A stretch of DNA of 64,000 nt from Pseudomonadota bacterium (GCA_022361155.1 JAKSBK010000527.1:6381-70380), one strand, 5' to 3'. Counted from the first letter of the stretch, positions 31,420 to 57,915 are shown. A program made the numbers and translations. Notes: generated from the letters alone by a model not told the origin.

Positions 31420-32847
31420 CTAGCGACCCGGATTCGCCCCTCCAGGTGGGCCGGTGTCACGGCGAATGCCGTAGGCTCTCATCTTCTTGTGGAGGTTGGT
31501 GCGCTCGATACCCAGCTCGGTGGCCGCCTTGGAGATGTTCCATTCGAGGCCCCGGAGCATCGCCAGTATGTAGTGTTTTTCCATATTTTCCCGAAACTTG
31601 CGGAGCGTGAGCCGCTGACCGGACGCTGCCACCAGGCGAGCCAGCTCTTGGGCGTCGGGTCGCGGCTCGTGCGTGCTTTGGCCAAGGCGGCCCTGGTCAG
31701 GGAGATCGGCGAGGGTGATCCGATCTCCGCTCAGGATGACCATACGCTCGACCACGTTCTTGAGCTCGCGCACGTTGCCGGGCCACGAACGGGAGGTGAG
31801 GGCCTGCAGAACCGCTGGATCGATCGGCTTGGCGCGCAACCCATTTTCCGCGCAGAACGAGCTCAAGAAAGCCTGTGTCAACAGCGGTATATCCTCCTTG
31901 CGCTCGCGAAGCGCCGGGCTACGCACGGGCACCACGTTGAGCCGAAAGTACAAGTCCTCGCGGAACTCGCCTGCCTCGACAGCAGCCTCCACGTCCTTAT
32001 TGGTAGCGGCAACGACACGCACATCGACCGAAATCGCCCGCTCGCTCCCCACGCGGGAGATCTCCCCGCTTTGAAGTGCCCGGAGCACCTTGGCCTGCGC
32101 CTCCAGGCTCATGTCCCCGATCTCGTCGAGCAGCAACGTGCCACCGTCCGCTGCCTCGAAGAGGCCTTTCTTTCGTGCCTGCGCTCCGGTGAAGGCGCCG
32201 CGCTCGTAGCCGAAGAGCTCGCTTTCGAGCAAGCTGCCTGGCAGGGCAGCGCAGTTCACCTTCACGAACGGGTTGGAGCGCCGGGGACTCAGTCTGTGGA
32301 TGGCTCGTGCGATCAGCTCCTTGCCTGTCCCGCTCTCGCCGGTGATGAGCACCCGTCCCCGGGTGGGCGCTACCTTCTCGATGGCAGCATAGAGCTTGAG
32401 CATGATGGAGCTCTTGCCGATCATGTCGTAGCGCTTGTTGACCTCGGCACGCAGGGAGTCCACCTCGGACTGCAGACGCGCCGACTTCAGCGCGTTGTTG
32501 ACGCTTACGAGGATGCGATCGCGGTCGAGCGGCTTCTCGAAGAAATCGGTGGCGCCCTGCTGGATGGCGTGTACCGCCTCCGAAAGCGACGCATGGCCCG
32601 AGATCATCAGCACCGGCAGCGCACTTCGGTGGGGACTAGCCCGCAAGGACTGCAGCGCATCGAGGCCGCTCATGCCGGGCAGTCGCACATCGAGGATCAC
32701 TAGGTCGGGCTCGTTTTCGTCAACGAGACGCAGGCCCTGTTCGCCGCTCGGTGCCTCCAATACCTCCAGGCCGGCGCCCTCCAGTACCATCCGCAAGCTC
32801 CGGCGGATGTTCTTCTCGTCGTCGATGATCAGGACGCTTGGGGACAC
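31420..32847 (-). CDS. Sigma54-dependent response regulator (NtrC/PilR class enhancer-binding protein)
   Basis: Receiver (VLIIDDEKNIRRSL ... DLVILDVRLPGMSG), AAA+ Walker A GESGTGKE, sigma54-contact loop GAFTGA, C-terminal Fis-type HTH (NISKAATELGIERTNLHKKM). Start set at GTG 32847. Confidence 0.9.
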   Translation of the reverse strand: MSPSVLIIDDEKNIRRSLRMVLEGAGLEVLEAPSGEQGLRLVDENEPDLVILDVRLPGMSGLDALQSLRASPHRSALPVLMISGHASLSEAVHAIQQGATDFFEKPLDRDRILVSVNNALKSARLQSEVDSLRAEVNKRYDMIGKSSIMLKLYAAIEKVAPTRGRVLITGESGTGKELIARAIHRLSPRRSNPFVKVNCAALPGSLLESELFGYERGAFTGAQARKKGLFEAADGGTLLLDEIGDMSLEAQAKVLRALQSGEISRVGSERAISVDVRVVAATNKDVEAAVEAGEFREDLYFRLNVVPVRSPALRERKEDIPLLTQAFLSSFCAENGLRAKPIDPAVLQALTSRSWPGNVRELKNVVERMVILSGDRITLADLPDQGRLGQSTHEPRPDAQELARLVAASGQRLTLRKFRENMEKHYILAMLRGLEWNISKAATELGIERTNLHKKMRAYGIRRDTGPPGGANPGR

Positions 32848-32936
32848 TGTTTCGCTATAACACACAGGTGAGCCGATGCCGGATGCCGCCCCCCTCGAAG
32901 GGACCGCACCTGCGGTGAACGAAGGCGTCGCGTCTT

Positions 32937-32992
32937 GCCAGCGGTGCCCGGCTCCCGCCGATCCGGAAAAGTTATTCTGTGACGGGGCCTTA
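32937..32992. repeat. Degenerate right-end relic of the MITE-like family in the divergent regulator/operon intergenic region
   Basis: gccagcggtg cccggctccc gccgatccgg aaaagttatt ctgtgacggg gcctta aligns without gaps to the last 56 nt of copy A (first 10 nt identical; tail 19 of 26). Confidence 0.45.
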
Positions 32993-33018
32993 CGCTGCCC
33001 GGAGGATGCCAATCAAGG

Positions 33019-33049
33019 TTGACCCTGTCGGTCCGTGCCTGGTATAAAT
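33019..33049 (+). promoter_or_regulatory. Near-consensus sigma70-type promoter with extended -10 (TTGACC-N18-TGgTATAAAT) in an AT-rich island about 60 nt upstream of 33115
   Basis: Hexamers read directly. The same bases also fit a weak sigma54 spacing (TGGTAT-N-AAGC, GG-N10-GC at 33041-33054). Confidence 0.45.
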
Positions 33050-33114
33050 GAAGCTCAATTGTTTCACTTTTTTCCGGGCGGGCAGCATCGACCCCGCAGG
33101 AACGAGGATATCCC

Positions 33115-33909
33115 ATGCGCAGGCTGGTGGCACCGTCCGCGTCTGTAGCGTTGTTCTTCGTAGGGACGCTGTTCTTTGTCGGCGTCGGAATAGCCGCGGG
33201 TCAAGACACCGCGCCAAGCACCGAGCAGGCGCAAGCGCAAGCTGCGGCATCGACCGAGGCCGCCGCCAAGGCTGGCGCAACCTCGGAAAAGGCGGCTCCG
33301 GCGCCCGGGGCGACGGGACCGCAGCTACCGGGCGGCTCGCCGGCTCGGGCAGCACCGACCGTGGACGCCTCCAAGTATTCGGTGAGGCTGCGCGATCTCG
33401 AGCAGCGGGTGAACGAGCTCAAGGAGCAGATTTTTCGATCGAAGGCACGTTTGTCGCTGCTTGCCGAGACAGTGCTGCAAGGTGTCGTCGCCGGTGCCCA
33501 GGCGAAGATCATCCACGAAAACAAGATGGGATCCTCCTACAAGCTCGTGCGCGTGGTCTACGCGCTCGACGGCGCCCCGATCTTCAACAAGGCCGATGAG
33601 TCGGGCGCGCTCGGGGATCGCGACGCATTTGACGTCTACAACGGCAGCATCGTGCCGGGCGAGCACACGCTGACAGTGAAACTCGAGTATCGAGGCCATG
33701 GCTATGGCATTTTCTCGTACCTCAAGGGCTATACCTTCAAGGCGCGGGCATCGTTTTCCTTCAACGCGCCCGAGGGCAAGCTGGCCACCCTCAGGGTCGT
33801 CGGCTACGAACGTGGAGGACCTACTGCACCGCTAGAGGAGCGACCCGCGGTTACCTTCCACAAGCGCTTTCAATCGAATCAGGCAGGTCCGGGAGAGGTA
33901 GCGCAGTGA
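33115..33909 (+). CDS. Secreted/anchored coiled-coil plus beta-rich protein, first gene of the Glt/Nfs-like operon (unassigned)
   Basis: GAGGA 8 nt before the ATG; hydrophobic N-terminus VALFFVGTLFFVGVGIAAG; heptad segment SVRLRDLEQRVNELKEQIFRSKARLSLLAE; beta-rich C-terminal half. Confidence 0.6.
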   Translation: MRRLVAPSASVALFFVGTLFFVGVGIAAGQDTAPSTEQAQAQAAASTEAAAKAGATSEKAAPAPGATGPQLPGGSPARAAPTVDASKYSVRLRDLEQRVNELKEQIFRSKARLSLLAETVLQGVVAGAQAKIIHENKMGSSYKLVRVVYALDGAPIFNKADESGALGDRDAFDVYNGSIVPGEHTLTVKLEYRGHGYGIFSYLKGYTFKARASFSFNAPEGKLATLRVVGYERGGPTAPLEERPAVTFHKRFQSNQAGPGEVAQ

Positions 33910-36386
33910 GCTCCGCGCTAGCCGTCCGGGATCCGATTCGGAATCCGGGCGGGCGCACGACGGCGCAGTCCGCTAGACAGCAACCGGGGCCTGCGGTGGC
34001 CCGGCGGCGATCGGATGCCCGTCCGGCGGGGCTCTGCCGCCGGACAGGTTTGGCCCCGTGGCTCGCGTGTCTGTTGGTCGTCTTGGATTGGACTGCAGCC
34101 GCCCGGGCCCAACAAGTCGCAAGAGCCGGTGCCCAGCTGGCAGACATCGAAGCCAAGGTAGCCCAGCTGCGCCGCGAACCGATAAGGCGTTCGCAGCTTC
34201 GCAGCCCTACCTATGTCGAGGAACGCCTGGCCGAGGGAGAGCTGCTCTACCGCCTGAGGGACTACGTCCGCGCGAGCGTCTTGTTCACGGATCTGGTGCA
34301 GAACCATGGCGGCCATGCGGCCTACGCGGACGCGTTGTTCCTTCTCGGCGACTCCCTGTTCCTGGCCGGAGATTTGCTCGGCGCCCGACGCCGTTTCACC
34401 CAGCTGCTGGGAAGAAGCGATCAGGCTCCGTTCCGTCCCCATGTGCAGAAGAGCCTGGGGCGATTGATCGAGATAGCGATCCACACCAACGACTTCCGGG
34501 GAGTGGACGAGTATTTCCGGCGCCTGGCACAGATTCCGCCTTCCCAGGTGGAAGCAGCCACTCACTACTTCCGCGGCAAGCTGCTGTACAGCAGGGCCGT
34601 CGCCGGCGATTTCGACCCCGAGGCCGCAGGCAAGGGTGGTGTGGTCGACCAGCCAACACTGGAGCAGGCGCGGCTCGCCTTTGCAGCGGTGGCCCCAAGG
34701 ACCCCGTACGTGGCGCAGGCGCGCTATTTCGTCGGCGTCGTCTACACGCTGCGAGGGCAGTATGCCGCTGCGCTTCGAGCGTTCGGGCAAGTCGTGCGCG
34801 CACCTTCGGAGCGCGATGAAAGACAGGCCAAGATCGAAGAGCTCGCCCAGCTCGCCCTGGGCAGGCTCCACTACGAAACCGGGCAGCTGGACCAGGCGAT
34901 CACAGCCTACCAGCGGGTGAAGCGCACCTCCGATCACTTTGGAACGGCGCTCTTCGAAGTTGCGTGGGTACACATCAAGCGCGGCGACTCGACCGAGGCC
35001 GAGAGGGCGCTCGAGCTGCTGCAGGTGGCGCGTCCGGACAGTCATTACATCCCGGACGCCAAAGTGCTGCGCGGCAATCTGCTGTTGCGGGAAGGACGCT
35101 ACGATGCCGCGACCAAGGCGTTCACCAAGGTCGCCTCCGACTTCGGCCAGGTTCGCAACGAGCTCGATGCGGTGCTGGCACGCCATGCGGATCCGGCCAG
35201 CTACTTCCGCGAGCTCGTGCGGCGCAACATGCGTGCCTTCGATGCGGACGCCTTCCTGCCCCCCATGGCCAGTCGCTGGATGATCGCCGGTCCCGAGATG
35301 AGCCAGGCGCTCGAGGTCCTTACTGATCTCTCGGCCACACGGCAGCTCGCCACGGAAACGAGGCAGATCGCGCTTCGCCTCGACGCGGCGCTCAGGGCGC
35401 CCAATCCCGTCACCATGTTCACCGATCTGCGTCTCTCTCGAGAGCGCTCCGTGGGCCTGCGCAACCGCCTCGCGGCCGTGCGAGCAGTGCTTATCGAACA
35501 GGAGGCTGCGGCCGCGCCGAGCGCCGGGGGCGAGGAGCTAGGCAGGCTGAGGACGCGGCGGCGCGAGCTCGAGCGGCTCCTTGCCGGCTTGCCCAGGCAG
35601 GCCACAGACTTCCGCCGTCGAAACAACCGCGTGCTGCATGGCTACGACGGCCTCGAGCACTCCTTGAGCGAACTCGACGTGGAGTTGCTGGGTCTCAACG
35701 CGCGCGTGACAGCGACCGAACGATTCATCCAAACGGGAGGAGTGCCGGCAGGTGCCGGCGTCGACGCACTTCGCGCCGAGCTCGAACGTCACGCCGACGC
35801 GATCAAGGCGCACCAGGAGCGGGTCAAAGCGCTGCGTGCGCAGGTCGAAGCAGGCAGGCTGCGCGTGGGCGTGGGCGATGAGAGCTACCGCCGGGATGTG
35901 GCCTTGCGTCGCGAGTACCGAGAGTTGGTGGGCCGGGAGCGTGCCTTGCTGGCGCAACACTCTCCCGTGCATCGTGAAATGGACGGGCTGTTCCGGCGGG
36001 TGACGTCCGTGGAGCAGATGCTGGACGCCCACGACGAGATGCTGCGTGTAGTGGTGCAGGAACGCATCGGGGAGATGAGCTCCGTCCTCAACGAGGAGAG
36101 CCAGAATCTGGTGGGCTACCAGGGCCGCATGACCCTGCTCGAGGGAGAAGCCGAGGGGACGGTCGGGGGCGTCGCGCACGCGAGCTTCCACGGTGCGCGC
36201 AAGCGTTTCCACGATCTCGTGCTGCGCGCCGATGTCGGCAAGGTCGACGTCGCCTGGGCTCAGCGGGAGGAACACCGAACCCGCATCGAGATGCTGACGC
36301 GCGAGCGCGCTCGAGAAATCAAAGTGCTGGACGACGAGTTTCGTGAGATCATGGATGAAACCACCGGTAAGGGAGAGGGCTCCTGA
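33906..36386 (+). CDS. 826-aa TPR-repeat protein with a ~400-aa C-terminal coiled coil (unassigned; possibly GltC/NfsC-position)
   Basis: GTG overlaps the upstream stop (GTGA). Signal-like LAPWLACLLVVLDWTAAARA. TPR-like units (ARYFVGVVYTLRGQYAAALRAF, LGRLHYETGQLDQAITAYQRV, VLRGNLLLREGRYDAATKAF). The remainder is Arg/Glu/Leu-rich heptads. Confidence 0.6.
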   Translation: MSSALAVRDPIRNPGGRTTAQSARQQPGPAVARRRSDARPAGLCRRTGLAPWLACLLVVLDWTAAARAQQVARAGAQLADIEAKVAQLRREPIRRSQLRSPTYVEERLAEGELLYRLRDYVRASVLFTDLVQNHGGHAAYADALFLLGDSLFLAGDLLGARRRFTQLLGRSDQAPFRPHVQKSLGRLIEIAIHTNDFRGVDEYFRRLAQIPPSQVEAATHYFRGKLLYSRAVAGDFDPEAAGKGGVVDQPTLEQARLAFAAVAPRTPYVAQARYFVGVVYTLRGQYAAALRAFGQVVRAPSERDERQAKIEELAQLALGRLHYETGQLDQAITAYQRVKRTSDHFGTALFEVAWVHIKRGDSTEAERALELLQVARPDSHYIPDAKVLRGNLLLREGRYDAATKAFTKVASDFGQVRNELDAVLARHADPASYFRELVRRNMRAFDADAFLPPMASRWMIAGPEMSQALEVLTDLSATRQLATETRQIALRLDAALRAPNPVTMFTDLRLSRERSVGLRNRLAAVRAVLIEQEAAAAPSAGGEELGRLRTRRRELERLLAGLPRQATDFRRRNNRVLHGYDGLEHSLSELDVELLGLNARVTATERFIQTGGVPAGAGVDALRAELERHADAIKAHQERVKALRAQVEAGRLRVGVGDESYRRDVALRREYRELVGRERALLAQHSPVHREMDGLFRRVTSVEQMLDAHDEMLRVVVQERIGEMSSVLNEESQNLVGYQGRMTLLEGEAEGTVGGVAHASFHGARKRFHDLVLRADVGKVDVAWAQREEHRTRIEMLTRERAREIKVLDDEFREIMDETTGKGEGS

Positions 36387-39300
36387 TGCTGGTCCCGAGC
36401 ATGCGTTGGATAGGGTTGCTGGTGCCGGTCTTGGCCGTGCCATGGCAGCTCGAGGCGCAGGTCCCGGCGGCGCCGGCCCCACCGGTCTCCTCCGGCAGCC
36501 GGACACCAGCGCGACCGGGTACGGTGGCACCGTCCGCGGCACGGCCGGCCGCTTCGGCGGCTGCGCCGGCCGCGAGAGCCCAGGACGTGCCGTGGGCCGG
36601 AACGAGCGATGTAACCGGGTTGGGAACGCTGCCGACCTTTCTTCAGACGGCAGCAAAGGAAAAGAGCCTCGACCAGCGACCCGATCCCACCCCACAACAA
36701 CTGGCGGCCCTCGAGGAGCTGCAGGCCGAGGTCAAGCACTTCGGGATGGTAGGGAGCGCTTTTCGCGACACCATGGGCACGCTGCTGCGGCGCGATTACA
36801 TGAGGCAGCGGCGCAACCGAGACCTGTCCTTCAAGCGCCAGATCGAACACGAAGAGCACCTTGAAGACGGGGCGCGAGCCAACGCCATCGAGCTGTTCGA
36901 GCGTTTTCTCGGCAGCTACCCGCGGGACCCGAAGTACTCCCCGGACGCCATGTTCAGGCTCGGCGAGTTGTACTTCGAGCGCAGCGCGATTCGCTTCCAA
37001 CGCGAGATGGACGCGTACCTCACCGAACGCGAGCGACTGCAGGAACATGAGCTCAGCGACTCGCATCTGCAAGAGCCGGCCAAGAGCTTCCTGCCGACCA
37101 TCGATCTCTACACCCAGCTGGTCAAGACCTTCCCAGACTACAAGCGTCTGGACGGCGTCTACTATTTGATCGGTTACTGCCTAAACGAAATGGGCAAGCC
37201 CGAGGCTGCGCGCCTGGCCTGGCTTAGCCTGGTATGCAGCAACGAGTTCACTTACAGGGGCGAGCCGGTTGCGGCCAAGCCGGAGCAGCCCGACGACCCC
37301 AGCGCCAAGCAGCATCCCGCACTGACTATGGATGAACCCGAGCCGAAACCGAAGGCTCCCTTCGTCGATCCCTATGCCAAGTGCAATCCAATCGGAAAGG
37401 GCTCGCGATTTTTTGCCGAGTCGTGGCTGCGCATCGGAGAGTACCATTTCGATTACGATTTCTCCGAGCGTGGTCTCGAGCAGGCGATCAGCGCCTACAA
37501 GAAGGTGCTGTCCAGGCCCGAGGACCGCAACTACAATCTGGCGCTGTACAAGGTGGCTTGGGCGCACTACCGCGCCAGTCACTATCCGGAGGCGATCAGT
37601 CACTTCGCGAAGCTCGTACAGTGGTCCGACGATGAACGAAAACGCACTGGAAAGGCGGGCACCGAACTGCGTGCAGAGGCCATTCAGTATCTGGGCATAG
37701 CGTTCGCCTACGACGACTGGAACGAAAACCAAATCGGCGATCCCGCCGAAGGCCTTCCCAGGGGCATCGACCGAGTACAGAATGCCAACTTGCTGGCGCA
37801 GGATCGCCCCTGGACGGCAGAGGTGTACTTTCAGCTTGGGAACATCTACTTCGACGAGGCCAAGTACGCCGATGCGATCGACGTCTGGCGATTGGCACTG
37901 GGACGCTGGCCGCTCCATTATCGAGCCCCCGAAATCCAGAACATGGTTGCGAGGGCCTTCACGCGCGACAACCAAATGGACAAGGCGGTCGACGCGCGGT
38001 CGAAGCTGGCAAGCTATGCCCAAGGCGGTGCCTGGTGGGACGCCAATATGGATCATCCGCGCGAGCAGCGCCAGGCCGAAGAGCTGGCCGAGGACTCGCT
38101 CATCAACACGGCGGTCTACCAACACCAAAAAGCGCAGCGCCTGCGAAGACGCTGCGTCGAACAGAAGGAACCCGACCTGTGCCGGCGCGCGCAGGCCGAG
38201 TACGGGATTGCCGCTCGGGCCTATCGCCAATACATCAAGAACTATCCCAATAACCCGCAGGCGTACGAACTGCAGTACAACCTCGCCGACGCGCTCTACT
38301 GGTCCGAAAACTACGAGTCGGCGGCCCGGGAGTACGCGGCAGTACGTGATTCGAATCTGGACGACACGTACCTATCGGTTTCGGCTCGATTGGTGGTCGA
38401 AGCGAACAAGCGGCTGATCGAGCAGGCAGAGCGAGCAGGTCAGCTGCAGCTTCGTTCGAAGCCGCCCGATCCCCAGGGTGCTCCACCTTCCATGCGCCCC
38501 GCGCCGATGCCCCAATTGATCCAGCGACTGGCACAAGCGCGAGAAATCTACCGCGCTCGCGTCCAGCCAGCGCAAGACAAGGAGGGCGTGCGCGAGTCCT
38601 ATCGGTACAACAACGCCCTGCTTCTTTACCAGTACGGCTACTGGACGCACGCCAAGCAGCGCCTGCGCACGATCTTCGACGAGCGCTGTGTTGGCCCCGA
38701 CGCAAACGAAACCGGACGAGTCGCGTGGCTCAATCTGCGCAACATGGCCGTGGCGCTGCAGGACAACAACGAGGTGCGGCGTCTGGGTCAGGAGCTGAGC
38801 CAGCGGCAATGCACGTTTGCGGCCAGCGGGATGCGCCGGCAGATCAACTGCGCGGATCCTGCAAACCAAGAGGAGCCGCAGTGTCTTGCCGGCGCTGACC
38901 TGACGAACCTCCGCTACCAGGATGCGGTACGCATCTTTGCGCAGGCCGAACAGACCGCTGGCGACGAACAGCGACACCTTTACGAAAAAGCGGCCACCGA
39001 GCTGGTCAAGGCGGTGAACGCTGAGCCGAATCACCCGCAGGCTCCTTTGGCCCTGGAGAAGGCGGCGATCGCTTTGGAGCGCACGAGCCGCTTCGAGTCC
39101 GCAGGGAGGCTGTACCAGCGCATTATCGACGAGGTAGGTCCCCGCAAGGGCAAGGACGGCCAGGAGCAGGCCTCGCTCGACGCCATCCTGGGCAACGCCT
39201 ACTTTCGAATGGCATTCAATGCAAACCGGTTCTTCGACTACGAGCGAGCCGTCGACAACTACCGATTGCTCGCAGACTCGCCACGTTTCGCCAGCTCCCA

Positions 39301-40348
39301 GGTGCCGGAAACGCTGGAGCGTCGCGAGGGAGCCCTGATCAACGCTGCGAAGATCCTGGAGTACCAACAACAGTATTCACGCGCAGCGGAGTACTACCGT
39401 CGTGCAGCCGAGATGCTACGGGACCCGAAAGAGCAACGCGTGGCGCGGTATCGCGTCGCAGAGATGTCGTACAAGCAGCAGCGTTACGGCTATGTGATAC
39501 GCAACATGCGAGCCTTCATCGAACGCTATCGGCGGGATAGGGACGCTGGTGAGCTCGTGGTGCAGGCCTATTGGCGCATCGCGGAAGCTCGCAAGGCACT
39601 CGCGCAGAAAGTGAAAGACCAGCGGCGCGCCCTGGAAGATGTCGCGGCCTTTTTCGCGCAGTCGGGCCAGGCTCCAGGCTCCTTCGCGGCCGAGTACGCT
39701 GCGCAGGCCAGGTTTCTTCTCGTCGATCGCGGCAGCGTCGAGTTCGAGCAGTTCGCGATCAAGCCTGGAGCTCCCCGAACGCTCGAGCGCTACGTCAAGA
39801 GTGTCATGGCACAGATAAAATCCGGGGGCGAAGAAGCCAAGCGCCGGGCGGAAGCCTACAACACCGTTCCCGGCTATCGCCGGCCGCTCTGGACCATCGC
39901 CGCCTTCGTTCGTCAGGGAAGGATCTACGAGGTGTTGGCTCGGGGTGTGCTCAACACGCCGTTCGTCATGCCCCAGGATCTCAAGAAGAAGATCCGACGC
40001 GCTCCCGCAGACCTCAAGGACGAGGTACGTGCACAGGTGGAAGACCGCATTCGCCAGGTCCTGGATGCGCAGGTGCGCCCCATCGAATGCCTCGCCGTAG
40101 CACGCTACGCCCTGGCTGCTCGAGCTGCACGCGCCGGAAATATCGACAACAAATACACCCGCTCGGCCATCGATCGCATCAATGCCTACGGTGATGAGCG
40201 CATTGCCGAATGCGTGGCGGAGGCTGCTGCGCGCGATCCTTCGTTTGCCCAGTACGCGCCTGGAGAGTTTTCTCGAGCGCCACGCGGTCGCAACCTCGGG
40301 ATCCGGGTTGGTGTCTCGCCGCCAGCGTTTGCACGAGGCCAACGATGA
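36386..40348 (+). CDS. 1320-aa periplasmic TPR-repeat protein, GltD(AgmU)/NfsD-like
   Basis: ATG overlaps the upstream stop by 1 nt (TGATG); signal peptide. Many YbgF/BamD-type TPRs (YPRDPKYSPDAMFRLGELYFERS, YYLIGYCLNEMGKPEAARLAW, ALYKVAWAHYRASHYPEAISHF). Size and gene order match GltD/NfsD as I recall them. Confidence 0.6.
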   Translation: MLVPSMRWIGLLVPVLAVPWQLEAQVPAAPAPPVSSGSRTPARPGTVAPSAARPAASAAAPAARAQDVPWAGTSDVTGLGTLPTFLQTAAKEKSLDQRPDPTPQQLAALEELQAEVKHFGMVGSAFRDTMGTLLRRDYMRQRRNRDLSFKRQIEHEEHLEDGARANAIELFERFLGSYPRDPKYSPDAMFRLGELYFERSAIRFQREMDAYLTERERLQEHELSDSHLQEPAKSFLPTIDLYTQLVKTFPDYKRLDGVYYLIGYCLNEMGKPEAARLAWLSLVCSNEFTYRGEPVAAKPEQPDDPSAKQHPALTMDEPEPKPKAPFVDPYAKCNPIGKGSRFFAESWLRIGEYHFDYDFSERGLEQAISAYKKVLSRPEDRNYNLALYKVAWAHYRASHYPEAISHFAKLVQWSDDERKRTGKAGTELRAEAIQYLGIAFAYDDWNENQIGDPAEGLPRGIDRVQNANLLAQDRPWTAEVYFQLGNIYFDEAKYADAIDVWRLALGRWPLHYRAPEIQNMVARAFTRDNQMDKAVDARSKLASYAQGGAWWDANMDHPREQRQAEELAEDSLINTAVYQHQKAQRLRRRCVEQKEPDLCRRAQAEYGIAARAYRQYIKNYPNNPQAYELQYNLADALYWSENYESAAREYAAVRDSNLDDTYLSVSARLVVEANKRLIEQAERAGQLQLRSKPPDPQGAPPSMRPAPMPQLIQRLAQAREIYRARVQPAQDKEGVRESYRYNNALLLYQYGYWTHAKQRLRTIFDERCVGPDANETGRVAWLNLRNMAVALQDNNEVRRLGQELSQRQCTFAASGMRRQINCADPANQEEPQCLAGADLTNLRYQDAVRIFAQAEQTAGDEQRHLYEKAATELVKAVNAEPNHPQAPLALEKAAIALERTSRFESAGRLYQRIIDEVGPRKGKDGQEQASLDAILGNAYFRMAFNANRFFDYERAVDNYRLLADSPRFASSQVPETLERREGALINAAKILEYQQQYSRAAEYYRRAAEMLRDPKEQRVARYRVAEMSYKQQRYGYVIRNMRAFIERYRRDRDAGELVVQAYWRIAEARKALAQKVKDQRRALEDVAAFFAQSGQAPGSFAAEYAAQARFLLVDRGSVEFEQFAIKPGAPRTLERYVKSVMAQIKSGGEEAKRRAEAYNTVPGYRRPLWTIAAFVRQGRIYEVLARGVLNTPFVMPQDLKKKIRRAPADLKDEVRAQVEDRIRQVLDAQVRPIECLAVARYALAARAARAGNIDNKYTRSAIDRINAYGDERIAECVAEAAARDPSFAQYAPGEFSRAPRGRNLGIRVGVSPPAFARGQR

Positions 40349-41910
40349 GATGCCGCGCTGCCGGAACCGCCGCACACCTGCGCCACGACGATCACGCGGG
40401 CGGGTTCGGCCGGCGGGGGGCTTGTGGGCGCTGGAGCAGCCTCGGCTCGGCCGGCTTGAGCGTGTGGCTGGTCCTGGGCTGCGGGGGCGGCAGCGCGGAT
40501 CGGCCTCGCGTTGCCAGGGCCCCAACCAGTGCGCCGCGGCCTGCGGTGGCGCGCGCAACGCAGGTGCCAATGCCTGCCCCGCACCCACCGCCGGAGCCGG
40601 TCGCGGTCTCGCCATCGCCAAAGACCCCTGCTCCGGCGGAGGCGAGCAGCAAGCCGAGCCCGTGGGGGGACCCGGAGCAGGAAACTGGCCGGCCGCTGCC
40701 GCCGCGACGGGCTCTTACCACCGCAGGAGGACAGCTGCTCGACCAGGCGATGGCCGCGGCCGATGCCGGCGACGTCAACACCGCGCGCCTGACGCTGGAG
40801 CGGGCGCTGCAAGCCGATCCGAACTCACCAAAGCTCGCCTACAACCTGGGCGTGCTGGCTGACCGGTCCGGTCAAGAAAACCAGGCGCTACAGTACTACC
40901 GGCGTGCCCTGCAGGTACAACCCGACTACGAGAAGGCAGCAGAGGGCATCGTGCGGTTCTATCTCAGGCGCGGCGCGGTGAGAGAGGCGGTCGCCTTCAT
41001 GGCGCCGCTCGCAAGCTCCTGGGTGCGCAACCTGTATCTGCAAGCACTCTACTCCTCGCTGCTCACGCGTGCCGGCCGACTCGACGAAGCGGAAGCGGCC
41101 GCACGCAAGGCCCTGAGGCGTGACGAGCGCTTCGTGCCTGCCATGATCGCGCTGTTGAAGGCTGCCCGCGCTCGCGGCCGCGCCGAGCTGGCCGACTCGA
41201 TGCTGCAGCAGGCCATGGGCGTAACCGACCAGGACGCGGAGCTGCACTTCCTGCTGGGCGCGAAGTACAAGAAGGACGGGCGGCTTGCGGATGCACTGAA
41301 AGCGTTTCGCAAGGCCGTGGAGCTGCGACCCGACTACCCCGAGGCCCGCATGGAGCTTGGCCTCCAGTACATGGCGGGTGGCAACTACTCGCAAGCACTC
41401 GCGGAGTTCGAGCACTTGGTTAGGCTGACCCCAGGCGTTGCAGCCGTTCATCTCAACCTGGGAGACGCGTACCGGTCCACGAAGCAGTGGCAATTGGCGA
41501 AGGCCTCTTTCGATGAAGCGCTCCGCCTGCAGCCCAATCTGCCGGAGGTGCATTTCAATCTGGCGCTCATGTACATGTCGGCCGGAGCAGACTATCCAGG
41601 CCTCGATCAGCTGACCGCACTGCGCCAGGCCGTGAGCGAATTCACGAACTACCGGCACATGAAGGGGCCAAGTTTGAGTCGAGACGACCCGTCCGAGGGT
41701 TATCTGCAGGATCTTCAACGAGGTATCGAGCGGGAGCAGCGCAGGATCGAACGGGAAAAGAAGCGCAAACAGCGCGAGACCGAGCGCGCCGCGCGCCGGG
41801 CGCCGAGTGGGCAGCCCACGCAGGGGGCCGCCGCCGACCAAGAGCCGACCCCGGCATCCGTGCCCGCGCCGACGCAACAAGCTCCGACGCAACAAGGAGG
41901 CCAGCAGTGA
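40345..41910 (+). CDS. TPR-repeat lipoprotein, GltE(AglT)/NfsE-like
   Basis: ATG overlaps the upstream stop (ATGA); lipobox LVLGCGGGS; Pro/Ala-rich linker; 7-8 canonical TPRs (AYNLGVLADRSGQENQALQYYRRALQVQPDY ... HFNLALMYM); basic/acidic tail. Confidence 0.6.
   Translation: MRCRAAGTAAHLRHDDHAGGFGRRGACGRWSSLGSAGLSVWLVLGCGGGSADRPRVARAPTSAPRPAVARATQVPMPAPHPPPEPVAVSPSPKTPAPAEASSKPSPWGDPEQETGRPLPPRRALTTAGGQLLDQAMAAADAGDVNTARLTLERALQADPNSPKLAYNLGVLADRSGQENQALQYYRRALQVQPDYEKAAEGIVRFYLRRGAVREAVAFMAPLASSWVRNLYLQALYSSLLTRAGRLDEAEAAARKALRRDERFVPAMIALLKAARARGRAELADSMLQQAMGVTDQDAELHFLLGAKYKKDGRLADALKAFRKAVELRPDYPEARMELGLQYMAGGNYSQALAEFEHLVRLTPGVAAVHLNLGDAYRSTKQWQLAKASFDEALRLQPNLPEVHFNLALMYMSAGADYPGLDQLTALRQAVSEFTNYRHMKGPSLSRDDPSEGYLQDLQRGIEREQRRIEREKKRKQRETERAARRAPSGQPTQGAAADQEPTPASVPAPTQQAPTQQGGQQ
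40555..40569 (-). promoter_or_regulatory. Perfect sigma54 -24/-12 consensus (TGGCAC-CTGCG-TTGC) antisense inside the GltE-like gene
   Basis: Plus strand gcaacgcaggtgcca; reverse complement tggcacctgcgttgc. It points across the 40345-40348 gene junction. Confidence 0.25.
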
Positions 41911-42173
41911 GCATCCGTGGCGCCGTGTTTTTGCTGCTTTGCGCGCTTTGGCTCGGCTCGCTCGTGGTAGCGACGACGGGGCAGGCCCAGCGCAAGCGTC
42001 GCCAGGCGGCTCCCAAGGTGATTCAGCTGGAGGAGATTCGCATCGAGGGACGCGTTCAAAAGCCCAATGCGTTCTACATCCTCAACCGCTCTAGCCTGGG
42101 CTACGAGGTGGTCGATCTGAGCGCGTCGTTCCTCAAAGATGTGGTGCGCGCAGTGAAGCGCGATCCGTTTTGA
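41907..42173 (+). CDS. 88-aa signal-anchored protein at the GltF/NfsF position
   Basis: GTG overlaps the upstream stop (GTGA); N-terminal AVFLLLCALWLGSLVVA. No domain recognised. Confidence 0.5.
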   Translation: MSIRGAVFLLLCALWLGSLVVATTGQAQRKRRQAAPKVIQLEEIRIEGRVQKPNAFYILNRSSLGYEVVDLSASFLKDVVRAVKRDPF

Positions 42174-42757
42174 CGCCCTACAACGTCGCGCAGCTGGTCG
42201 TGGCGGCCGTCGTGTGCGGCACGGTGGTCCAGCGTTTGCTCGTGATTCTGTATCGGGCGCCGATCGAGCTTGAGCCCTACCTGAACCGCCTCGGCGGGCG
42301 GCTGGGCGAGGGGGATCTCGAGGGCGCCAAGACGCTGGCCGAGGCAGGGGGAAGCAGCTGGGTGGCACTGTTGGCGGGCGCGATGGTCAGGGCCAAGATG
42401 GCCGGAGAGGACCCAGGGGCAGCGCGCGACTCCGTCTGGGCCGAGCTGCGCGACGAGGGAGGCAAGGGCCTGCACGCCATCCGAGGCCTAAGCAGCATTG
42501 CGTCCGCAATCGGCCTTCTTGGAGTCATCGTCGAGTTCAGGCATGTGTATTCCGCCGACGGCGACTCCGCGCTGCCGGCAAGCGGCCTGCAGGCACAAGC
42601 TCTTCAGCACGCAGCCGTGACGATGGCACTAGGGCTCGTGACCTCTCTGGTCGGTTACAGCGCGTTGCGCGTTCTGCGACGTCACCTGAGGCGCCTGGCC
42701 CAGGACTTGAAGCGCGCGGCACGCAGTCTCGACGAGCAACTCGTGCTCGAGCGGTGA
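42170..42757 (+). CDS. MotA/TolQ/ExbB-like 3-TM protein (short, divergent)
   Basis: TTG overlaps the upstream stop (TTGA). Topology is TM1 (VAQLVVAAVVCGTVVQRLLVILY), a ~95-aa loop, TM2 (LSSIASAIGLLGVIVEF) and TM3 (AAVTMALGLVTSLVGYSAL), as in TolQ/ExbB/AglR. Confidence 0.5.
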   Translation: MTPYNVAQLVVAAVVCGTVVQRLLVILYRAPIELEPYLNRLGGRLGEGDLEGAKTLAEAGGSSWVALLAGAMVRAKMAGEDPGAARDSVWAELRDEGGKGLHAIRGLSSIASAIGLLGVIVEFRHVYSADGDSALPASGLQAQALQHAAVTMALGLVTSLVGYSALRVLRRHLRRLAQDLKRAARSLDEQLVLER

Positions 42758-42941
42758 GAAAATGTCGGGCGATCTCGGGATTCGTAGGCACGACCGAGAG
42801 GGTTGGGGTGCGACGCCTGCGTGAAGATTGTGGACCCGCTTTTTCAGGACGTGTACTGTTGGTCGAGCCCGGTGCGACTCGCGTTCGGCCTCGGCGGCGC
42901 CGTGGCGTCCTCAGCTGGGGGCCGATACGGGGAGCGACCCG

Positions 42942-44387
42942 ATGAACAGCAACCAGACGCAGCAGACACGGCGTGGCCGTCCGGGTGCCATGACCATGGC
43001 CATGCAGGCGGTTCAGCTTCGCCCTTCGGGCCCGAAGGTGCTGCGCATCGGCCTGATTCAAGGCGGGCGGATCGTCGAGGAGCGCATCGTCCGCAAACGC
43101 GAGACGGTCCTGGTGGGCACCTCGGAGAAGAACCACTTCGTGGTCCAGGCCAAGGGGCTGCCGTCGCGTTTCGAGCTGTTTCAGCTGGTCGGACAGGACT
43201 ACATCCTGAACTTCCGTGACGACATGAAGGGGCGGGTTGGGTTGCCGGGGGGGGTGCAAGACCTGCAGCAGCTGCGCTCCAGCGGCTCGGCCCGCAACGC
43301 GGGCTCCCATTGGCAGGTCAAGCTGTCCGATAACTCGCGCGGCAAGGTCGTTATCGGCAACGTGACGCTGCTGTTCCAGTTTGTCGTGCCGCCACCGGTC
43401 CAGCCCAGACCGCAGCTGCCTGCGGCCGCACGTGCGGGGTTCGTGCGCGCCCTGGATTGGCTCTTCACAGCGCACGTTACGTTCGCGTTCATGGCGATGT
43501 TTTCCCTGATCGTCTACATGGAGAACGCAGACTGGCCGATCGAACAAGGCATCGCCGCGGTTCCGGACGCGGTCGCGAGAATGATCTTCGAGGAACCGCC
43601 ACCGCCCCCGGAGGAAGAACCCCTGGAGGAAGAACCTACGGAGGCAGAAGAAGCCACGGAAGAGGCCAAGCCGGAGCCCAAGGAGACGCCCAAGAAGGAC
43701 GAGCCCGCACCCAAGGAAACCAAGGAAGAGGTGGCCGAGAAGACGGCCCGGATCGCCGAGGAGGCCGCGCAGGCGGCTGAAGCCCTGATCGTCGGAGCCT
43801 TGAGCGCCGAGGCTGGCGGCGTTCTGGCCGATGTGCTGGCAGGTGGAGCGGTCACGGGCATGGCTGAGGACGTCCTCGCGCAAGCGGCGGGTGTCGGCGT
43901 GGCGCAGTCCTCGGCGGGTGGCGCGCTTCGTACCCGGACCGGCGGGGGCCGGGGCAGCGGCGTGGGCGGGCTGGGTGCACTTGCACGTCGTGGCGGGGGC
44001 AAGGCCGTCGCCGAGGGCAAGGCGGTGGCAGAGCGCAGGATCCGTGGCCGGGCCAAGCTCAGCACCGGCGGCGGAGACATCGGGGGCACCGGAGATTTCG
44101 ACGACAAAGTGGTGATCCGCACCATCAAGACGCGGCTGCGGGCGATCCAGGCCTGCTACGAGCGAGAGCTGCGGCGCAATCCTACACTGGCGGGCAAAGT
44201 CGTAGTCCAGTTCACGATCGAGGAGCGGGGCAACGTGACCGGGTCGAAGGCAACCGAGAACACCACCGGATCCGATGCCGTGGCTTCGTGCGTGGTCAAC
44301 ACAATAAGGCGCTTTCGCTTCAACCCAGGGCCAGAGGGTGGAAGCGTGACCTATTCGTATCCCTTCGTGTTCGCCCCCCAGAACTAA
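42942..44387 (+). CDS. GltG(PglI)/NfsG-like bitopic protein: FHA-like N-domain, TM, acidic Pro-rich linker, AgmX/PglI-type (TonB-C-like) C-terminal domain
   Basis: GGGGAG 8 nt before ATG 42942. LRIGLIQGGRIVEERIVRKRETVLVGTSEKNHFVV. TM WLFTAHVTFAFMAMFSLIVYM. EEPPPPPEEEPLEEEPTEAEEATEEAKPEPKETPKKDEPAPKE. C-terminal RAIQACYERELRRNPTLAGKVVVQFTIEERGNV...SCVVNTIRRFRFNPGPEGGSVTYSYPFVF. Confidence 0.65.
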   Translation: MNSNQTQQTRRGRPGAMTMAMQAVQLRPSGPKVLRIGLIQGGRIVEERIVRKRETVLVGTSEKNHFVVQAKGLPSRFELFQLVGQDYILNFRDDMKGRVGLPGGVQDLQQLRSSGSARNAGSHWQVKLSDNSRGKVVIGNVTLLFQFVVPPPVQPRPQLPAAARAGFVRALDWLFTAHVTFAFMAMFSLIVYMENADWPIEQGIAAVPDAVARMIFEEPPPPPEEEPLEEEPTEAEEATEEAKPEPKETPKKDEPAPKETKEEVAEKTARIAEEAAQAAEALIVGALSAEAGGVLADVLAGGAVTGMAEDVLAQAAGVGVAQSSAGGALRTRTGGGRGSGVGGLGALARRGGGKAVAEGKAVAERRIRGRAKLSTGGGDIGGTGDFDDKVVIRTIKTRLRAIQACYERELRRNPTLAGKVVVQFTIEERGNVTGSKATENTTGSDAVASCVVNTIRRFRFNPGPEGGSVTYSYPFVFAPQN

Positions 44388-44545: not shown

Positions 44546-44660
44546 GCTCAAGTCGCCAGGATCGCTCGACATTGACAGCTAGGACGCCCCTGGCAATACT
44601 ATACGGCGGTACTCATCGAGGCGGTGTGGTAGTGGTGTTTGCGGGCAACGGGATGGCGCA

Positions 44661-45242
44661 ATGACTGGGAAACGTCTGAGTGGTAGCGTGCTGCTAGCGG
44701 CCTTCGCTCTGACGACCGGCGTGCTTGCACAGGCCGGCGGGACCGAAGGGAGCGCAAATGAGCAGCGCGAGCTTGACGTGCGTCAGCGAGCCTCGCTCAG
44801 CGGCGCGGAGCAAGTCAAAGAGGCGGGGCGCTTGTTGCAGCGGGCCGATCGCATAGCTCGTCGAGTCGCCTCGATGCTCGACGAGGCACGGCGCGAGCGT
44901 GACATCATTCGAGTTACGTGCCTGAACGACAAGCTGAATCAGATCAACGCGGGCATGCGAGCCACTGAACGCCGGCTCGAATCGCTGCGGGATGCCGTGA
45001 AGCTCAACGACGATGCGCGCCGCAATCACGAGTACACCGTGGTCACGGTGCTGGGCCAGAAGTTCACCACGCTGGAGCAAGAGGCCAACCAGTGCGTCGG
45101 CGAGGATTTGTTCGAGACCGGAACGACCCAGGTCACGACCGTGGTGGATCCTGCGACCCCAAGCGGAGAAAGCACAGCCGCACCGGCCAGCCCGACGGTT
45201 CAGGTGCCGTTCTTGCCGCAGCCTGCCAGCCCGTTCATGTAG
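44661..45242 (+). CDS. Secreted coiled-coil protein (hypothetical)
   Basis: Signal peptide SVLLAAFALTTGVLAQA; Arg/Glu/Leu-rich heptads. No family recognised. Confidence 0.55.
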   Translation: MTGKRLSGSVLLAAFALTTGVLAQAGGTEGSANEQRELDVRQRASLSGAEQVKEAGRLLQRADRIARRVASMLDEARRERDIIRVTCLNDKLNQINAGMRATERRLESLRDAVKLNDDARRNHEYTVVTVLGQKFTTLEQEANQCVGEDLFETGTTQVTTVVDPATPSGESTAAPASPTVQVPFLPQPASPFM

Positions 45243-45506
45243 CTCCCAAGGCCTTGGACCGACCCTCGAAGGCGTTGCTCGCCGACTTCGTGCTCGATCG
45301 GTCGATGCGTCTGCGATAGTGGTCGATCCGGAGTCGAGCCACCGGAGGCATGAAAGACACTATGTTGAGGATGGCGAGACGGGGCCGCGGCCGCTTGCGG
45401 GGGCGGATCGGCCACGCGGTTCCGAATCGATGCGGCGGCCGGAGGCTGGTGACCGATGCGGGCTAGACCCCACGATTTCGAGGGCCTCGGGATCGACGGG
45501 AGTGTT

Positions 45507-46100
45507 TTGAAGACACTCCCTAGGGTGGTCTGGCTGATCACGCTTGCCTTGTCGGGTTGTGGCTCGTCTGCCCGTGCTCCGGTGGTGGTTCCTCCGGTGG
45601 AAGCCAGCGAGACCGCGCTGGGGTCAGGCGATGTCTTCGACGTACGGGTGTACGGGGAAGAGGCCCTGTCCGGCACCCACCAGGTGGCCAGTGACGGAAG
45701 CATCGACTTCCCCCTTGTAGGACGCGTGCAGGTGCGGGGCCGAGAACCGACCGAGGTCGCTGATATGCTCTCGGCGAAGTTGAGAGCGGGACACTTCCTA
45801 AAGCACCCTCAAGTGTCCGTGTTGGTGCAAGAGTACGCATCCAAGCGCGTGACTGTAATGGGCGCCGTCAACCGTGCCGGGACCTTTCCCCTAACGTCAG
45901 GCCTCACGGTGGTCCAGGCTATCAGCCTCGCTGGCGGCTTTACCCCGCTCGCCAACCGCAACGGGACCCTCGTCATTCGGAGAGTGGGTGGTGAGCGGCG
46001 CCGTATCAGGGTACCGGCCGCTCAGGTCGCCGAAGGCCGTGTGGACGATTTCCCAGTCCAGGCGGGCGACACTATCCAGGTGCCGGAGAGGCTCTTCTAG
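45507..46100 (+). CDS. Short outer-membrane polysaccharide export (OPX, Wza-like) lipoprotein. An alternative start at 45456 is possible.
   Basis: TTG 45507 with GGGAG 5 nt upstream gives MKTLPRVVWLITLALSGC (lipobox). Poly_export motif GDVFDVRVYGEEALSG..VASDGSIDFPLVGRVQVRGREPTEV and SLBB-like VTVMGAVNRAGTFPL..LTVVQAISLAGG. No C-terminal OM-spanning helix region. Confidence 0.75.
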   Translation: MKTLPRVVWLITLALSGCGSSARAPVVVPPVEASETALGSGDVFDVRVYGEEALSGTHQVASDGSIDFPLVGRVQVRGREPTEVADMLSAKLRAGHFLKHPQVSVLVQEYASKRVTVMGAVNRAGTFPLTSGLTVVQAISLAGGFTPLANRNGTLVIRRVGGERRRIRVPAAQVAEGRVDDFPVQAGDTIQVPERLF

Positions 46101-51442: not shown

Positions 51443-52069
51443 ATGCAGATTTTTCCCCGTGCTGCCAACTTGTTGCCGCTCGTGCTGGGTCTGGGTGCCG
51501 TAGCAGCTGGTGGCGGGATTACCTTTGTCTTTTGGTACTTCTTCTCGCCTTGGAATCTGCAGGTTGGCCACGCCCCCCGGCAGCCCGTTCAGTACAGTCA
51601 CAAACTGCATGCCGGTGAGCTGGGGATCGACTGCCGCTATTGCCACGCGAACGTCGAGCGTTCTCACGAAGCCATGATTCCGGCGACCCAAACCTGCATG
51701 GGCTGCCACGCGCTGGTGCGGGCCGACTCCGAGAAACTTGCGGTGGTACGCGAGAGCTGGGAATCGGATCTACCGATCCAGTGGGTCCGGGTCCACAAGC
51801 TGCCAGACCACGTTTTCTTCGATCATAGTGTGCATGTGGCTGCATCGGTCGGTTGCGTCTCTTGCCACGGTCGCATCGATCAGATGGAGATCGTCGTCCA
51901 GGAGCGACCGATCAGTATGAGTTGGTGCCTGGATTGCCATCGCGATCCAGCTCCGAATCTGCGTCCCCGTCACGAGGTCACGAACATGACCTGGAAGCCA
52001 CAGAGCTCCGAGCCGATCGCGGCCGCGACAGTAGACCCGCCAACCCACTGCTCGGGGTGTCACCGATGA
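51443..52069 (+). CDS. actA: Alternative Complex III subunit ActA (membrane-anchored pentahaem cytochrome c)
   Basis: N-terminal TM plus five CxxCH motifs (CRYCH, CMGCH, CVSCH, CLDCH, CSGCH). Confidence 0.85.
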   Translation: MQIFPRAANLLPLVLGLGAVAAGGGITFVFWYFFSPWNLQVGHAPRQPVQYSHKLHAGELGIDCRYCHANVERSHEAMIPATQTCMGCHALVRADSEKLAVVRESWESDLPIQWVRVHKLPDHVFFDHSVHVAASVGCVSCHGRIDQMEIVVQERPISMSWCLDCHRDPAPNLRPRHEVTNMTWKPQSSEPIAAATVDPPTHCSGCHR

Positions 52070-55000: not shown

Positions 55001-55110
55001 TCGCAGACATCGGCACGCGTCCGCGTACGACCTACCTCGCGAAGATTCGCAACCCAAACCCCAACATGGGTACAGGGACCGCTTCTGCCAAGCCGGAGAC
55101 GCACGGATGA
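52066..55110 (+). CDS. actB: Alternative Complex III subunit ActB (molybdopterin-oxidoreductase-like domain fused to a 4-cluster Fe-S domain)
   Basis: ATG 52066 overlaps the actA stop (ATGA). Tat motif NRRGFLTL. Ferredoxin motifs [43 protein letters not shown]. Confidence 0.9.
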
Positions 55111-56519: not shown

Positions 56520-56530
56520 GAGGCTGGGCG

Positions 56531-57100: not shown

Positions 57101-57228
57101 GGGTTGCGCTTAGGGTCCGTCCAAGAATAGCTGGTCGAGACCGGCCGCGCAGCGTGGATGCGATTCGCCGGCGCGCCCGGAGGAAGAACCGCAGCAATGG
57201 CAGCGCTATTGCGAGGATTTTTGCGAGG

Positions 57229-57900: not shown

Positions 57901-57915
57901 CACGAAGGCAAACCA

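Follow-up and report, generated by a model that had tools for sequence, protein, structure and literature searches.

The systems closest to the locus described here, a seven-gene Glt-like cluster in a 64,000-nucleotide (nt) stretch of bacterial DNA (contig JAKSBK010000527.1, 6381-70380, of assembly GCA_022361155.1; hereafter the window, with positions counted from its first letter), are the trans-envelope machines of myxobacteria. Luciano et al. (2011; PMC3169522) defined a Glt 'core complex' consisting of gltC, gltD, gltE and gltG together with aglR, aglQ and aglS, an ancestral set that occupies a single cluster in Geobacter (Gura_3070-3077), and listed additional clusters in Myxococcus xanthus: G3 (nfs), G4, which contains the gltD homologue MXAN_1922, and G5 (MXAN_1327). 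G4 comprises MXAN_1919-1923, encoding proteins of 447, 91, 490, 1111 and 809 amino acids (aa), and Haliangium ochraceum carries the set Hoch_6494-6498, of 823, 1202, 422, 120 and 490 aa (PMC3169522, supplementary table). Mutants in G4 and G5 had no motility phenotype, and the function of these clusters was not known (PMC3169522). Agl-Nfs, for its part, acts on the spore-coat glycan secreted by Exo (PMC3858216).

We compared the window with about 60 related loci. The cluster does not represent a new kind of system, and it is not the canonical locus for glt or nfs either: judged by its sequence, it is the Polyangiales version of the G4-type cluster, the counterpart of MXAN_1924-1919, and belongs to a paralogue type already catalogued. 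The locus does not itself reveal what G4 does. What the comparison adds is a fuller parts list for G4-type clusters, with the genes that we call g1 and d1 as constant companions, and a new observation, a strongly conserved adjacency to a polysaccharide exporter of the WzpB/WzaB type. This adjacency makes G4 function testable in M. xanthus, for which mutants, assays of biosurfactant polysaccharide (BPS) and a WzaB structure exist.

Results

A G4-type cluster of Glt paralogues

The cluster consists of seven open reading frames (ORFs g1 to g7; Table 1) on the plus strand, a predicted operon. An earlier note on this DNA, made by a model from the sequence alone, had described seven same-strand genes joined by start/stop overlaps with a single 184-nt gap. 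The ORF coordinates and junctions bear this out: overlaps of 1 or 4 nt occur at 33906 (GTGA), 36386 (TGATG), 40345 (ATGA), 41907 (GTGA) and 42170 (TTGA), and the spacing between g6 and g7 is the sole gap in the chain. Shine-Dalgarno-like GGAG or GAGG motifs lie upstream of four of the five overlapping starts, and third-position G+C is coding-like (0.75-0.80) in five of the seven ORFs and in the g6 reading frame, in a window of about 65% GC. The same gene order is found on two independent contigs, L002 and L004 (271, 787, 1288, 472, 83, 198 and 486 aa); since the string recurs with similar order and lengths in relatives, its organization is conserved and does not represent a chance run of ORFs.

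Genomes were scanned with the M. xanthus WzaB sequence (9N9A) to reach G4-type loci from the exporter side. In Myxococcus sp. Y35 (WzaB 96% identical), the genes running toward wzaB encode a GltC-like protein, a GltD-like protein, a GltE-like lipoprotein, a 91-aa protein and a 447-aa GltG-like protein, and these are followed by genes for a cyclic nucleotide (cNMP)-binding protein, a 203-aa homologue of d1 (the gene that follows g7 in the window), a 421-aa WzpB and a 204-aa WzaB. The Y35 GltD-like protein is 28% identical to g3 over 1196 aa (E 3e-102), the 91-aa protein 44% identical to g5, and the GltG-like protein 35% identical to g7. Homologues of g2-g3-g4-g5-g7 lie in collinear order 5' of wzpB-wzaB in Y35 and in eight other Myxococcaceae or Archangiaceae loci, and tblastn searches with each of these five proteins gave collinear matches in Myxococcus, Corallococcus, Pyxidicoccus and Archangium loci. 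With WzaB numbered MXAN_1915 and WzpB MXAN_1916, counting back places the GltD-like gene at MXAN_1922, in agreement with the published G4 gltD homologue.

The published G4 lengths are likewise close to those of g7, g5, g4, g3 and g2. In particular, g7 has the short architecture with one forkhead-associated (FHA) domain (481 aa, as against 447 for MXAN_1919 and 490 for Hoch_6498), while the canonical GltG model extends over 650 aa. Myxococcus G4 proteins and those of the window also score alike, with 159 versus 171 bits against the GltG model and 120 versus 119 bits against the GltE model.

Table 1. Features of the Glt-like cluster, the genes that follow it and its candidate promoter (positions in the window).
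Feature	Position	Strand	Length	Description
Candidate sigma-70-type promoter	33019-33048	+		TTGACC-18 nt-TATAAA, 67 nt 5' of g1; read by eye; weak
g1	33115-33909	+	264 aa	Signal peptide, disordered Ala/Pro-rich linker, helix 85-125, nine-strand beta-sandwich; without Glt counterpart
g2	33906-36386	+	826 aa	GltC homologue, periplasmic tetratricopeptide-repeat (TPR) and coiled-coil protein; NCBIfam gliding_GltC 1.3e-29
g3	36386-40348	+	1320 aa	GltD homologue, TPR 'pillar' protein; signal peptide
g4	40345-41910	+	521 aa	GltE homologue, TPR lipoprotein, lipobox LVLGC; NCBIfam gliding_GltE 3.1e-34
g5	41907-42173	+	88 aa	Small secreted GltF/CglF-like protein
g6	42170-42757	+	195 aa	Degenerate three-transmembrane (TM) TolQ/AglR homologue, putative relic of an in-cluster stator, without TolR partner
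g7	42942-44387	+	481 aa	GltG homologue with an FHA-like domain in the cytoplasm, a single TM helix, a Pro/Glu-rich linker and a TonB-type AgmX/PglI C-terminal domain
d1	44661-45242	+	193 aa	Small periplasmic helical protein, MXAN_1917-type; signal peptide, two conserved Cys
Wza	45456-46100	+	214 aa	Class-3 OPX (outer-membrane polysaccharide export) protein (short Wza), WzaB-type; Pfam Poly_export and SLBB; lipobox LSGC

Beyond this overall collinearity, g2, g3, g4, g5 and g7 could each be matched to a Glt component. The g2 protein carries TPR matches in Pfam, is collinear with the MXAN_1923-type gene of Myxococcaceae and Archangium, and scores 103.5 bits against gliding_GltC (equivalog cut-off 450). 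Orthologues of MXAN_1922 are 28-30% identical to g3 over about 1190 aa (E 1e-102 to 1e-112), and the L002 and L004 counterparts 63-64%. No NCBIfam GltD match was obtained for g3, and none for the GltD-like protein of the Archangium G4 cluster; because the NCBIfam library cannot test GltD directly, the identity of g3 is taken from its homology to the MXAN_1922 orthologues. The g4 lipoprotein gives 118.7 bits against gliding_GltE (cut-off 225), close to the 119.8 bits of the Myxococcus G4 protein. Identity between g5 and the 91-aa MXAN_1920-type protein ranges from 36 to 50% (E about 1e-15); the latter matches NCBIfam gliding_CglF (CglF being another name for GltF) at 9.3e-8, and g5 itself does so weakly, at 0.013, its sole meaningful match in relaxed Pfam and NCBIfam searches.

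The g7 protein matches NCBIfam gliding_GltG at 3.2e-50 (171.3 bits, cut-off 650) in an alignment that spans model positions 196-647 only, exceeds the cut-off of myxo_SS_tail (1.6e-27), is also matched by Pfam TonB_C, and is 35-37% identical to the MXAN_1919-type protein. In its AlphaFold model a confident beta domain (33-148) precedes a TM helix at 167-195, and a disordered linker then leads to an alpha/beta domain at the C-terminus (388-477); Foldseek ranks TonB C-terminal domains and FHA domains highest. GltG itself was assigned on similar evidence, namely structural matches to a TonB C-terminal domain and to FHA (PMC11761067). The TM helix of g7 also contains an SHLS-like motif, which was dropped as a candidate because relatives do not conserve its His.

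In the g1 AlphaFold model the folded part scores above 85 in pLDDT, the predicted value of the local distance difference test. A Foldseek search against the Protein Data Bank (PDB) returned no match at E <= 0.001, and neither g1 nor d1 belongs to a family in Pfam or NCBIfam, relaxed searches included. The C-terminal ~170 aa of g1 are nonetheless about 80% identical among Polyangiales relatives, and Archangium gephyra has a homologue at L068 8432-9175 (54% identity over 163 aa, E 2.6e-56), immediately 5' of its GltC-like gene. By these comparisons g1 is conserved as a lead gene wherever a G4-type cluster could be checked, in the Polyangiales relatives and in Archangium; the 2011 list of G4 genes omits a gene of this type.

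The assignments agree in large part with the earlier note, which had called the locus a Glt/Nfs relative: g2, g4 and g7 match the NCBIfam GltC, GltE and GltG models (1e-29 to 1e-50, below cut-offs), and the 1320-, 521- and 481-aa proteins do resemble GltD, GltE and GltG through MXAN_1922 orthologues, gliding_GltE and gliding_GltG, respectively. Its domain calls were borne out, by TPR matches in g2-g4, a lipobox in g4, a MotA_ExbB match just under threshold in g6, and TonB_C with AgmX/PglI in g7, as was its description of g1 as a secreted coiled-coil/beta protein, the model of which runs from a long helix into a beta-sandwich. We also found none of GltA/B/H, GltK, GltI/J or a TolR/ExbD partner among the window ORFs scanned, all of which it had listed as missing. 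It erred in adding GltC to that list and in counting two extra lead genes: with g2 identified as the GltC homologue, g1 alone is extra. Nor is the composition non-canonical, as had been proposed; by comparison with MXAN_1919-1923 and Hoch_6494-6498 it is standard for a G4-type cluster. The two identities that had been offered, a 'core' version of the system and a further paralogous machine of unknown cargo, both come near the truth, except that the paralogue is an already known one, G4.

In A. gephyra (L068, 7305-8383), mglB-mglA, encoding the GTPase/GAP pair that acts as master control of polarity and motility, lies directly 5' of the G4-type cluster, whose first gene is the g1 homologue. M. 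xanthus MglA and MglB are MXAN_1925 and MXAN_1926, and the same adjacency is expected there by locus numbering; it was not seen in the window, L002 or L004.

Linkage to a class-3 polysaccharide exporter

Two conserved partners of the cluster, d1 and a class-3 Wza, sit past position 44387, where the feature delimited by the earlier note ended. In nearly all related loci a homologue of d1, 25-48% identical to it, is found at the corresponding place. The best solved-structure match of the window Wza, over its whole length, is PDB 9N9A, which is M. xanthus WzaB (1.9e-43), and the protein fits the class-3 OPX type: it is a lipoprotein with Poly_export and a single SLBB domain, and it lacks the outer-membrane helix at the C-terminus. 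In relatives the cluster is typically followed by a d1-type small protein, then by a Wzp porin and lastly by a class-3 Wza; the M. xanthus equivalents are MXAN_1917, WzpB and WzaB, of which the latter two form the BPS exporter. The window has a 213-nt gap (45243-45455) where relatives carry the porin gene, and no Wzp-like sequence was found in the whole 64 kb.

We surveyed this linkage from both sides. Starting from gltG, 11 distinct related loci had at least 4 kb of downstream sequence: d1 and/or Wzp followed in nine of them and Wza in seven (L002, L004, L040, L041, L051, L056 and L064). L046 and L054 have Wzp without Wza, the reverse of the window, and L057 and L066 have neither. Starting from WzaB, a gltG-like gene was present in all 19 loci with sufficient upstream flank. 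The L002 contig continues past Wza into a gene for a polysaccharide co-polymerase (PCP-2A, Wzc-type) and a wzy gene, which agrees with the report that wzaB of Sandaracinus is contiguous with the remainder of the BPS cluster.

The linkage persists through loss of the motor genes described below, through gain and loss of the cNMP gene and through insertions of 4-5 kb. The cNMP-binding protein (about 145 aa; MXAN_1918-type, as at L008 7470-7910) is encoded between the gltG-like gene and d1, in L009-L037, L051 and L058 as well; it occurs in Myxococcia and several divergent lineages, but neither the window nor its close relatives have it. Its distance from d1 is larger in L035-37 and L051, where another 4-5 kb of genes intervene. 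In the literature searched, no mention was found of a link between the G4 cluster and wzaB/wzpB.

Apparent decay of a built-in motor

The gene between the gltF-like and gltG-like genes is g6. Against Pfam MotA_ExbB (PF01618) its product scores 22.2 bits, 0.7 bits short of the gathering cut-off of 22.9. The g6 family aligns with the family of intact in-cluster TolQ-like proteins over 181 columns in hhalign (probability 96.3%, E 1.9e-9), g6 itself aligns with them over its full length, and the best PDB matches of the g6 profile are TolQ chains (E 0.0055). The canonical motifs of TM2 (GLLGTI, with the Thr of LLGTI) and TM3 (NTTAFGL..AIP) are lost, and GLLGVIVEF and AAVTMALGLVTSLV stand in their place. 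Between lineages g6 is only 26-31% identical, versus 67-73% for g7. Five of the seven degenerate TolQ-like proteins (window g6, at E123 in 'GVIVEF', and those of L002, L004, L039 and L043) have a Glu in the middle of TM2 where intact ones have Gly; the charge may compensate for a loss, or the residue may be there by chance.

In more divergent relatives the same slot holds an intact, well-conserved TolQ gene and two TolR genes (L035-37, which are named Myxococcota metagenome-assembled genome loci, and L049, L051-53, L056, L058 and L062-66). A metagenomic locus, L047, has a TolQ-like gene only (1765-2565; 51% identical to an intact one), with no TolR gene before the gltG-like gene, as might be expected of a cluster partway through losing its motor. 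Clusters of Myxococcaceae and Archangium have no gene in the slot at all, and the Pfam and NCBIfam scans found no TolR/ExbD gene among the window ORFs scanned. The sequences thus form a clear series of apparent decay, from complete motor to TolQ only, degenerate TolQ and none, and in our reading g6 is a stator subunit of the AglR type that has decayed, the remnant of an ancestral in-cluster TolQ-TolR-TolR motor, rather than as the added extra that the earlier note had taken it for. Perhaps it has been kept as a three-TM protein that serves as an adaptor for the TM helix of g7. Decay of a built-in TolQ-TolR motor implies that a motor from another locus could power the complex, in the way that Agl serves Glt as well as Nfs.

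Neighboring genes and candidate control elements

The closest relatives of the cluster carry the annotation Polyangiales or Myxococcales, and the source of the window is an uncultured myxobacterium. A protein from an NCBI metagenome-assembled genome (locus tag MJD61_, labelled 'Proteobacteria bacterium') matches g1 with 100% identity. A gene at 18358-20694 (plus strand) encodes a 778-aa protein with five MXAN_6577-like Cys-rich repeats (NCBIfam NF041328, 8e-60), which fits this assignment because the family is myxobacterial.

The candidate promoter of g1 (Table 1) was passed over by a consensus scan because its -10 hexamer lacks the final T, and promoter and terminator scans of the locus gave counts no higher than those of shuffled controls. 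A promoter-like TTGACA-17-AATACT lies 5' of d1 (44572-44600), a kind of site no commoner here than chance. Divergent from g1 and about 100 nt away is a gene for an NtrC-type sigma-54 activator with receiver, AAA+ and HTH_8 domains (31420-33012, minus strand). The 33012-33115 gap contains no sigma-54 promoter with three or fewer mismatches, and the count of such sites across the window equals chance; in relatives the slot of the activator is occupied by a gene for an extracytoplasmic function (ECF) sigma factor.

Two genes 5' of the operon (28397-30109, minus strand) is a PilB/type II secretion E-type ATPase with an N-terminal MshEN domain. Stand-alone MshEN proteins, 38% identical to the ATPase N-terminus, are encoded near wza in L002 (15527-15973), L004 (15449-15898) and L040 (2397-2819). 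MshEN domains bind cyclic di-GMP, and their presence near the locus may be a hint of regulation. Lastly, a respiratory cluster lies at 51829-63915 (plus strand). Its products include an Fe-S protein of 1093 aa, a membrane subunit like DsrP/QrcD and several c-type cytochromes, and genes for subunits II and I of cytochrome oxidase come next; the arrangement is similar to that of alternative complex III with an oxidase and bears no relation to the Glt-like operon. The other window ORFs scanned were housekeeping, respiratory or unassigned.

Discussion

A model for the G4-type complex

Our preferred reading, which we hold with moderate confidence, is that the Polyangiales G4-type cluster encodes a periplasm-spanning complex of the TonB/Tol type that is either powered in trans or a static scaffold, and whose output probably lies with the adjacent OPX/Wzp translocon. 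The encoded parts are a bitopic protein (g7), four proteins with predicted export signals (g2, g3, g4 and g5) and a cluster-specific secreted coiled-coil/beta-sandwich protein (g1); no intact motor in cis was found among the window ORFs scanned. By analogy with the AlphaFold-based model of the Agl-Glt assembly (PMC11761067), the linker of the GltG-like protein would wrap the GltD-like TPR pillar, the GltE-like lipoprotein would bind the C-terminus of the pillar, and the GltF-like protein would bridge the C-terminal domain of the GltG-like protein to the GltC-like protein, which would extend toward the outer membrane.

Energy would enter through a TolQR-type motor acting on the TM helix of the GltG-like protein, as the ancestral gene order and the interaction of AglR with GltG (PMC3169522) suggest. 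The relatives point to an ancestral drive by a proton motor, TolQ-TolR-TolR, whose genes lay between those for GltF and GltG. In the lineage of the window both TolR genes appear to have been lost, and TolQ to persist as the fast-evolving g6, without the conserved channel residues and at most an inner-membrane adaptor; power would therefore come from another motor of the TolQR/AglRQS type in trans, unless the complex is a static scaffold. At its outer end the complex probably works with the adjacent class-3 OPX/Wzp translocon or with its polymer, a proposal that draws on synteny and on the precedent of Agl-Nfs and Exo.

Alternative interpretations

Several observations weigh against this model, mostly at its outer end. 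The tie to polysaccharide export is one of gene order, and it is not obligatory: the window is without wzp, L046 and L054 are without wza, and L057 and L066 are without both. A polar insertion in M. xanthus MXAN_1922 had no appreciable effect on motility, soft agar included (PMC3169522), while loss of WzaB or WzpB reduces swarm spreading; it follows that the G4 GltD-like protein is probably dispensable for BPS export and that wzpB-wzaB probably have a transcript of their own. If the complex has a role in BPS export, that role is thus probably accessory or conditional. The assignment to G4, as opposed to G1, G3 or G5, is based on synteny, lengths and scores, and g6, which stays an intact three-TM ORF across lineages and has a TM2 Glu in five of seven cases, may have a function beyond that of a relic. 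We give a lesser, though real, chance to a G4-type machine that is unconnected with polysaccharide export, the adjacency of d1-wzp-wza being inherited gene order and the complex serving some other envelope task, be it integrity, another cargo or one under MglA control. The absence of a swarming or gliding defect in the polar mutant speaks for it, as do the missing wzp and wza genes, the position of the cluster directly 3' of mglB-mglA in Archangium (and in M. xanthus too, going by its locus numbers) and the promoter-like site 5' of d1. What counts against it is that the adjacency has been retained across lineages whose GltG-like proteins are just 29-37% identical, that it has outlasted rearrangements within the cluster (motor loss, gain and loss of the cNMP gene, the 4-5 kb insertions), and that d1 has been retained between the two modules. 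Such persistence in the face of divergence and rearrangement is hard to account for without selection.

The model's borrowed motor has its own competitor, a self-powered 'core complex' in which g6 is a working TolQ-like stator, its TM2 Glu perhaps replacing the Asp of TolR, and energizes g7 directly. The frequency of that Glu, the survival of g6 as an intact three-TM ORF of about 195 aa in all close relatives and the contact of AglR with GltG (PMC3169522) can be cited in its favor. Against it, g6 has lost the Thr of TM2 as well as the Thr/Pro motif of TM3, it evolves at close to the rate of unconstrained sequence (26-31% identity, compared with 67-73% for g7), and Myxococcaceae retain the cluster without any g6. 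Motors of the TolQ, ExbB and MotA type need a TolR, ExbD or MotB partner; there is none among the window ORFs scanned, and the solved motors matched by g6 are TolQ, ExbB or MotA subunits. We consider a self-powered complex improbable. Least credible of all is that the locus is the canonical Agl-Glt gliding machine or Agl-Nfs spore-coat machine with its other genes just beyond the window. The homology to GltC, D, E, F and G would fit, but the GltC, GltE and GltG scores fall far below their equivalog cut-offs, g7 is of the short one-FHA form of MXAN_1919 and not of the GltG form, no homologue of GltA, B, H, K, I or J was found among the window ORFs scanned, and the locus is syntenic with G4 and wzaB instead. 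A canonical glt or nfs identity is effectively refuted by these scores, this architecture and this synteny.

Returning to a G4-type complex allied to the exporter, a broader and distinctly tentative proposal is that G4-type complexes are a conserved accessory module of class-3 OPX/Wzp (BPS-type) secretion across Myxococcota, TonB/Tol-like trans-periplasmic devices, driven by a proton motor, that gate or pull the secreted polymer or distribute it in space. If so, a general rule of one Glt paralogue per secreted polysaccharide would emerge, with Glt serving slime and Nfs the spore coat, and the window would represent a late stage in which the dedicated motor is gone and energy is borrowed in trans.

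Comparison with known systems

With Tol-Pal and TonB-ExbBD the cluster shares a bitopic protein whose Pro-rich linker leads to a C-terminal domain of the TonB type, a membrane protein of the TolQ/ExbB family and TPRs like those of YbgF/CpoB. It differs from them in having no TolR/ExbD, TolB or Pal, in the degenerate state of its TolQ-like protein, and in its large TPR proteins and cytoplasmic FHA-like domain, which are Glt-specific. Similarly, the periplasmic GltC/D/E/F/G module is homologous to that of Agl-Glt (G1, G2 and M1), with the same predicted architecture of a trans-periplasmic TPR pillar and a TonB-like protein. Unlike Agl-Glt, the window has none of GltA/B/H/K, GltI/J, CglB or a linked AglRQS among the ORFs scanned, its scores stay below the equivalog cut-offs, and the M. 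xanthus mutant in the G4 gltD homologue glides normally.

The ancestral Glt core complex has the same order, gltC-gltD-gltE-(small gene)-TolQ-like-...-gltG, and four divergent relatives of the window (L051, L056, L058 and L064) retain the full TolQ-TolR-TolR set at the core-complex position. In contrast, the window is without both TolR-type genes, its TolQ-type protein is without channel motifs, and a GltF-like gene, g1 and the d1-wza tail are present in addition. Closest of all is G4 itself (MXAN_1919-1923, Hoch_6494-6498): GltC-D-E-F-G order, nearly equal lengths, a short one-FHA GltG-like protein and no barrel genes in the cluster, followed by an MXAN_1917-type protein and then, in relatives, WzpB/WzaB-type genes (in the window d1 and Wza, without Wzp), with g1 common to Archangium as well. 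The window departs from the G4 clusters of Myxococcaceae and Archangiaceae in its degenerate TolQ-like g6 between the gltF-like and gltG-like genes, and from that of M. xanthus in having neither an MXAN_1918-type cNMP gene nor a Wzp gene and in not lying beside mglBA.

Lastly, Agl-Nfs with Exo (WzaS/WzpS) offers a functional precedent for a Glt-like complex paired with a class-3 OPX/Wzp polysaccharide. The eight-gene nfsA-H cluster includes the NfsA/B/H barrels and sits apart from exo, whereas here no beta-barrel gene was found in or beside the operon by Pfam and NCBIfam scans, and the Glt-like and OPX genes adjoin.

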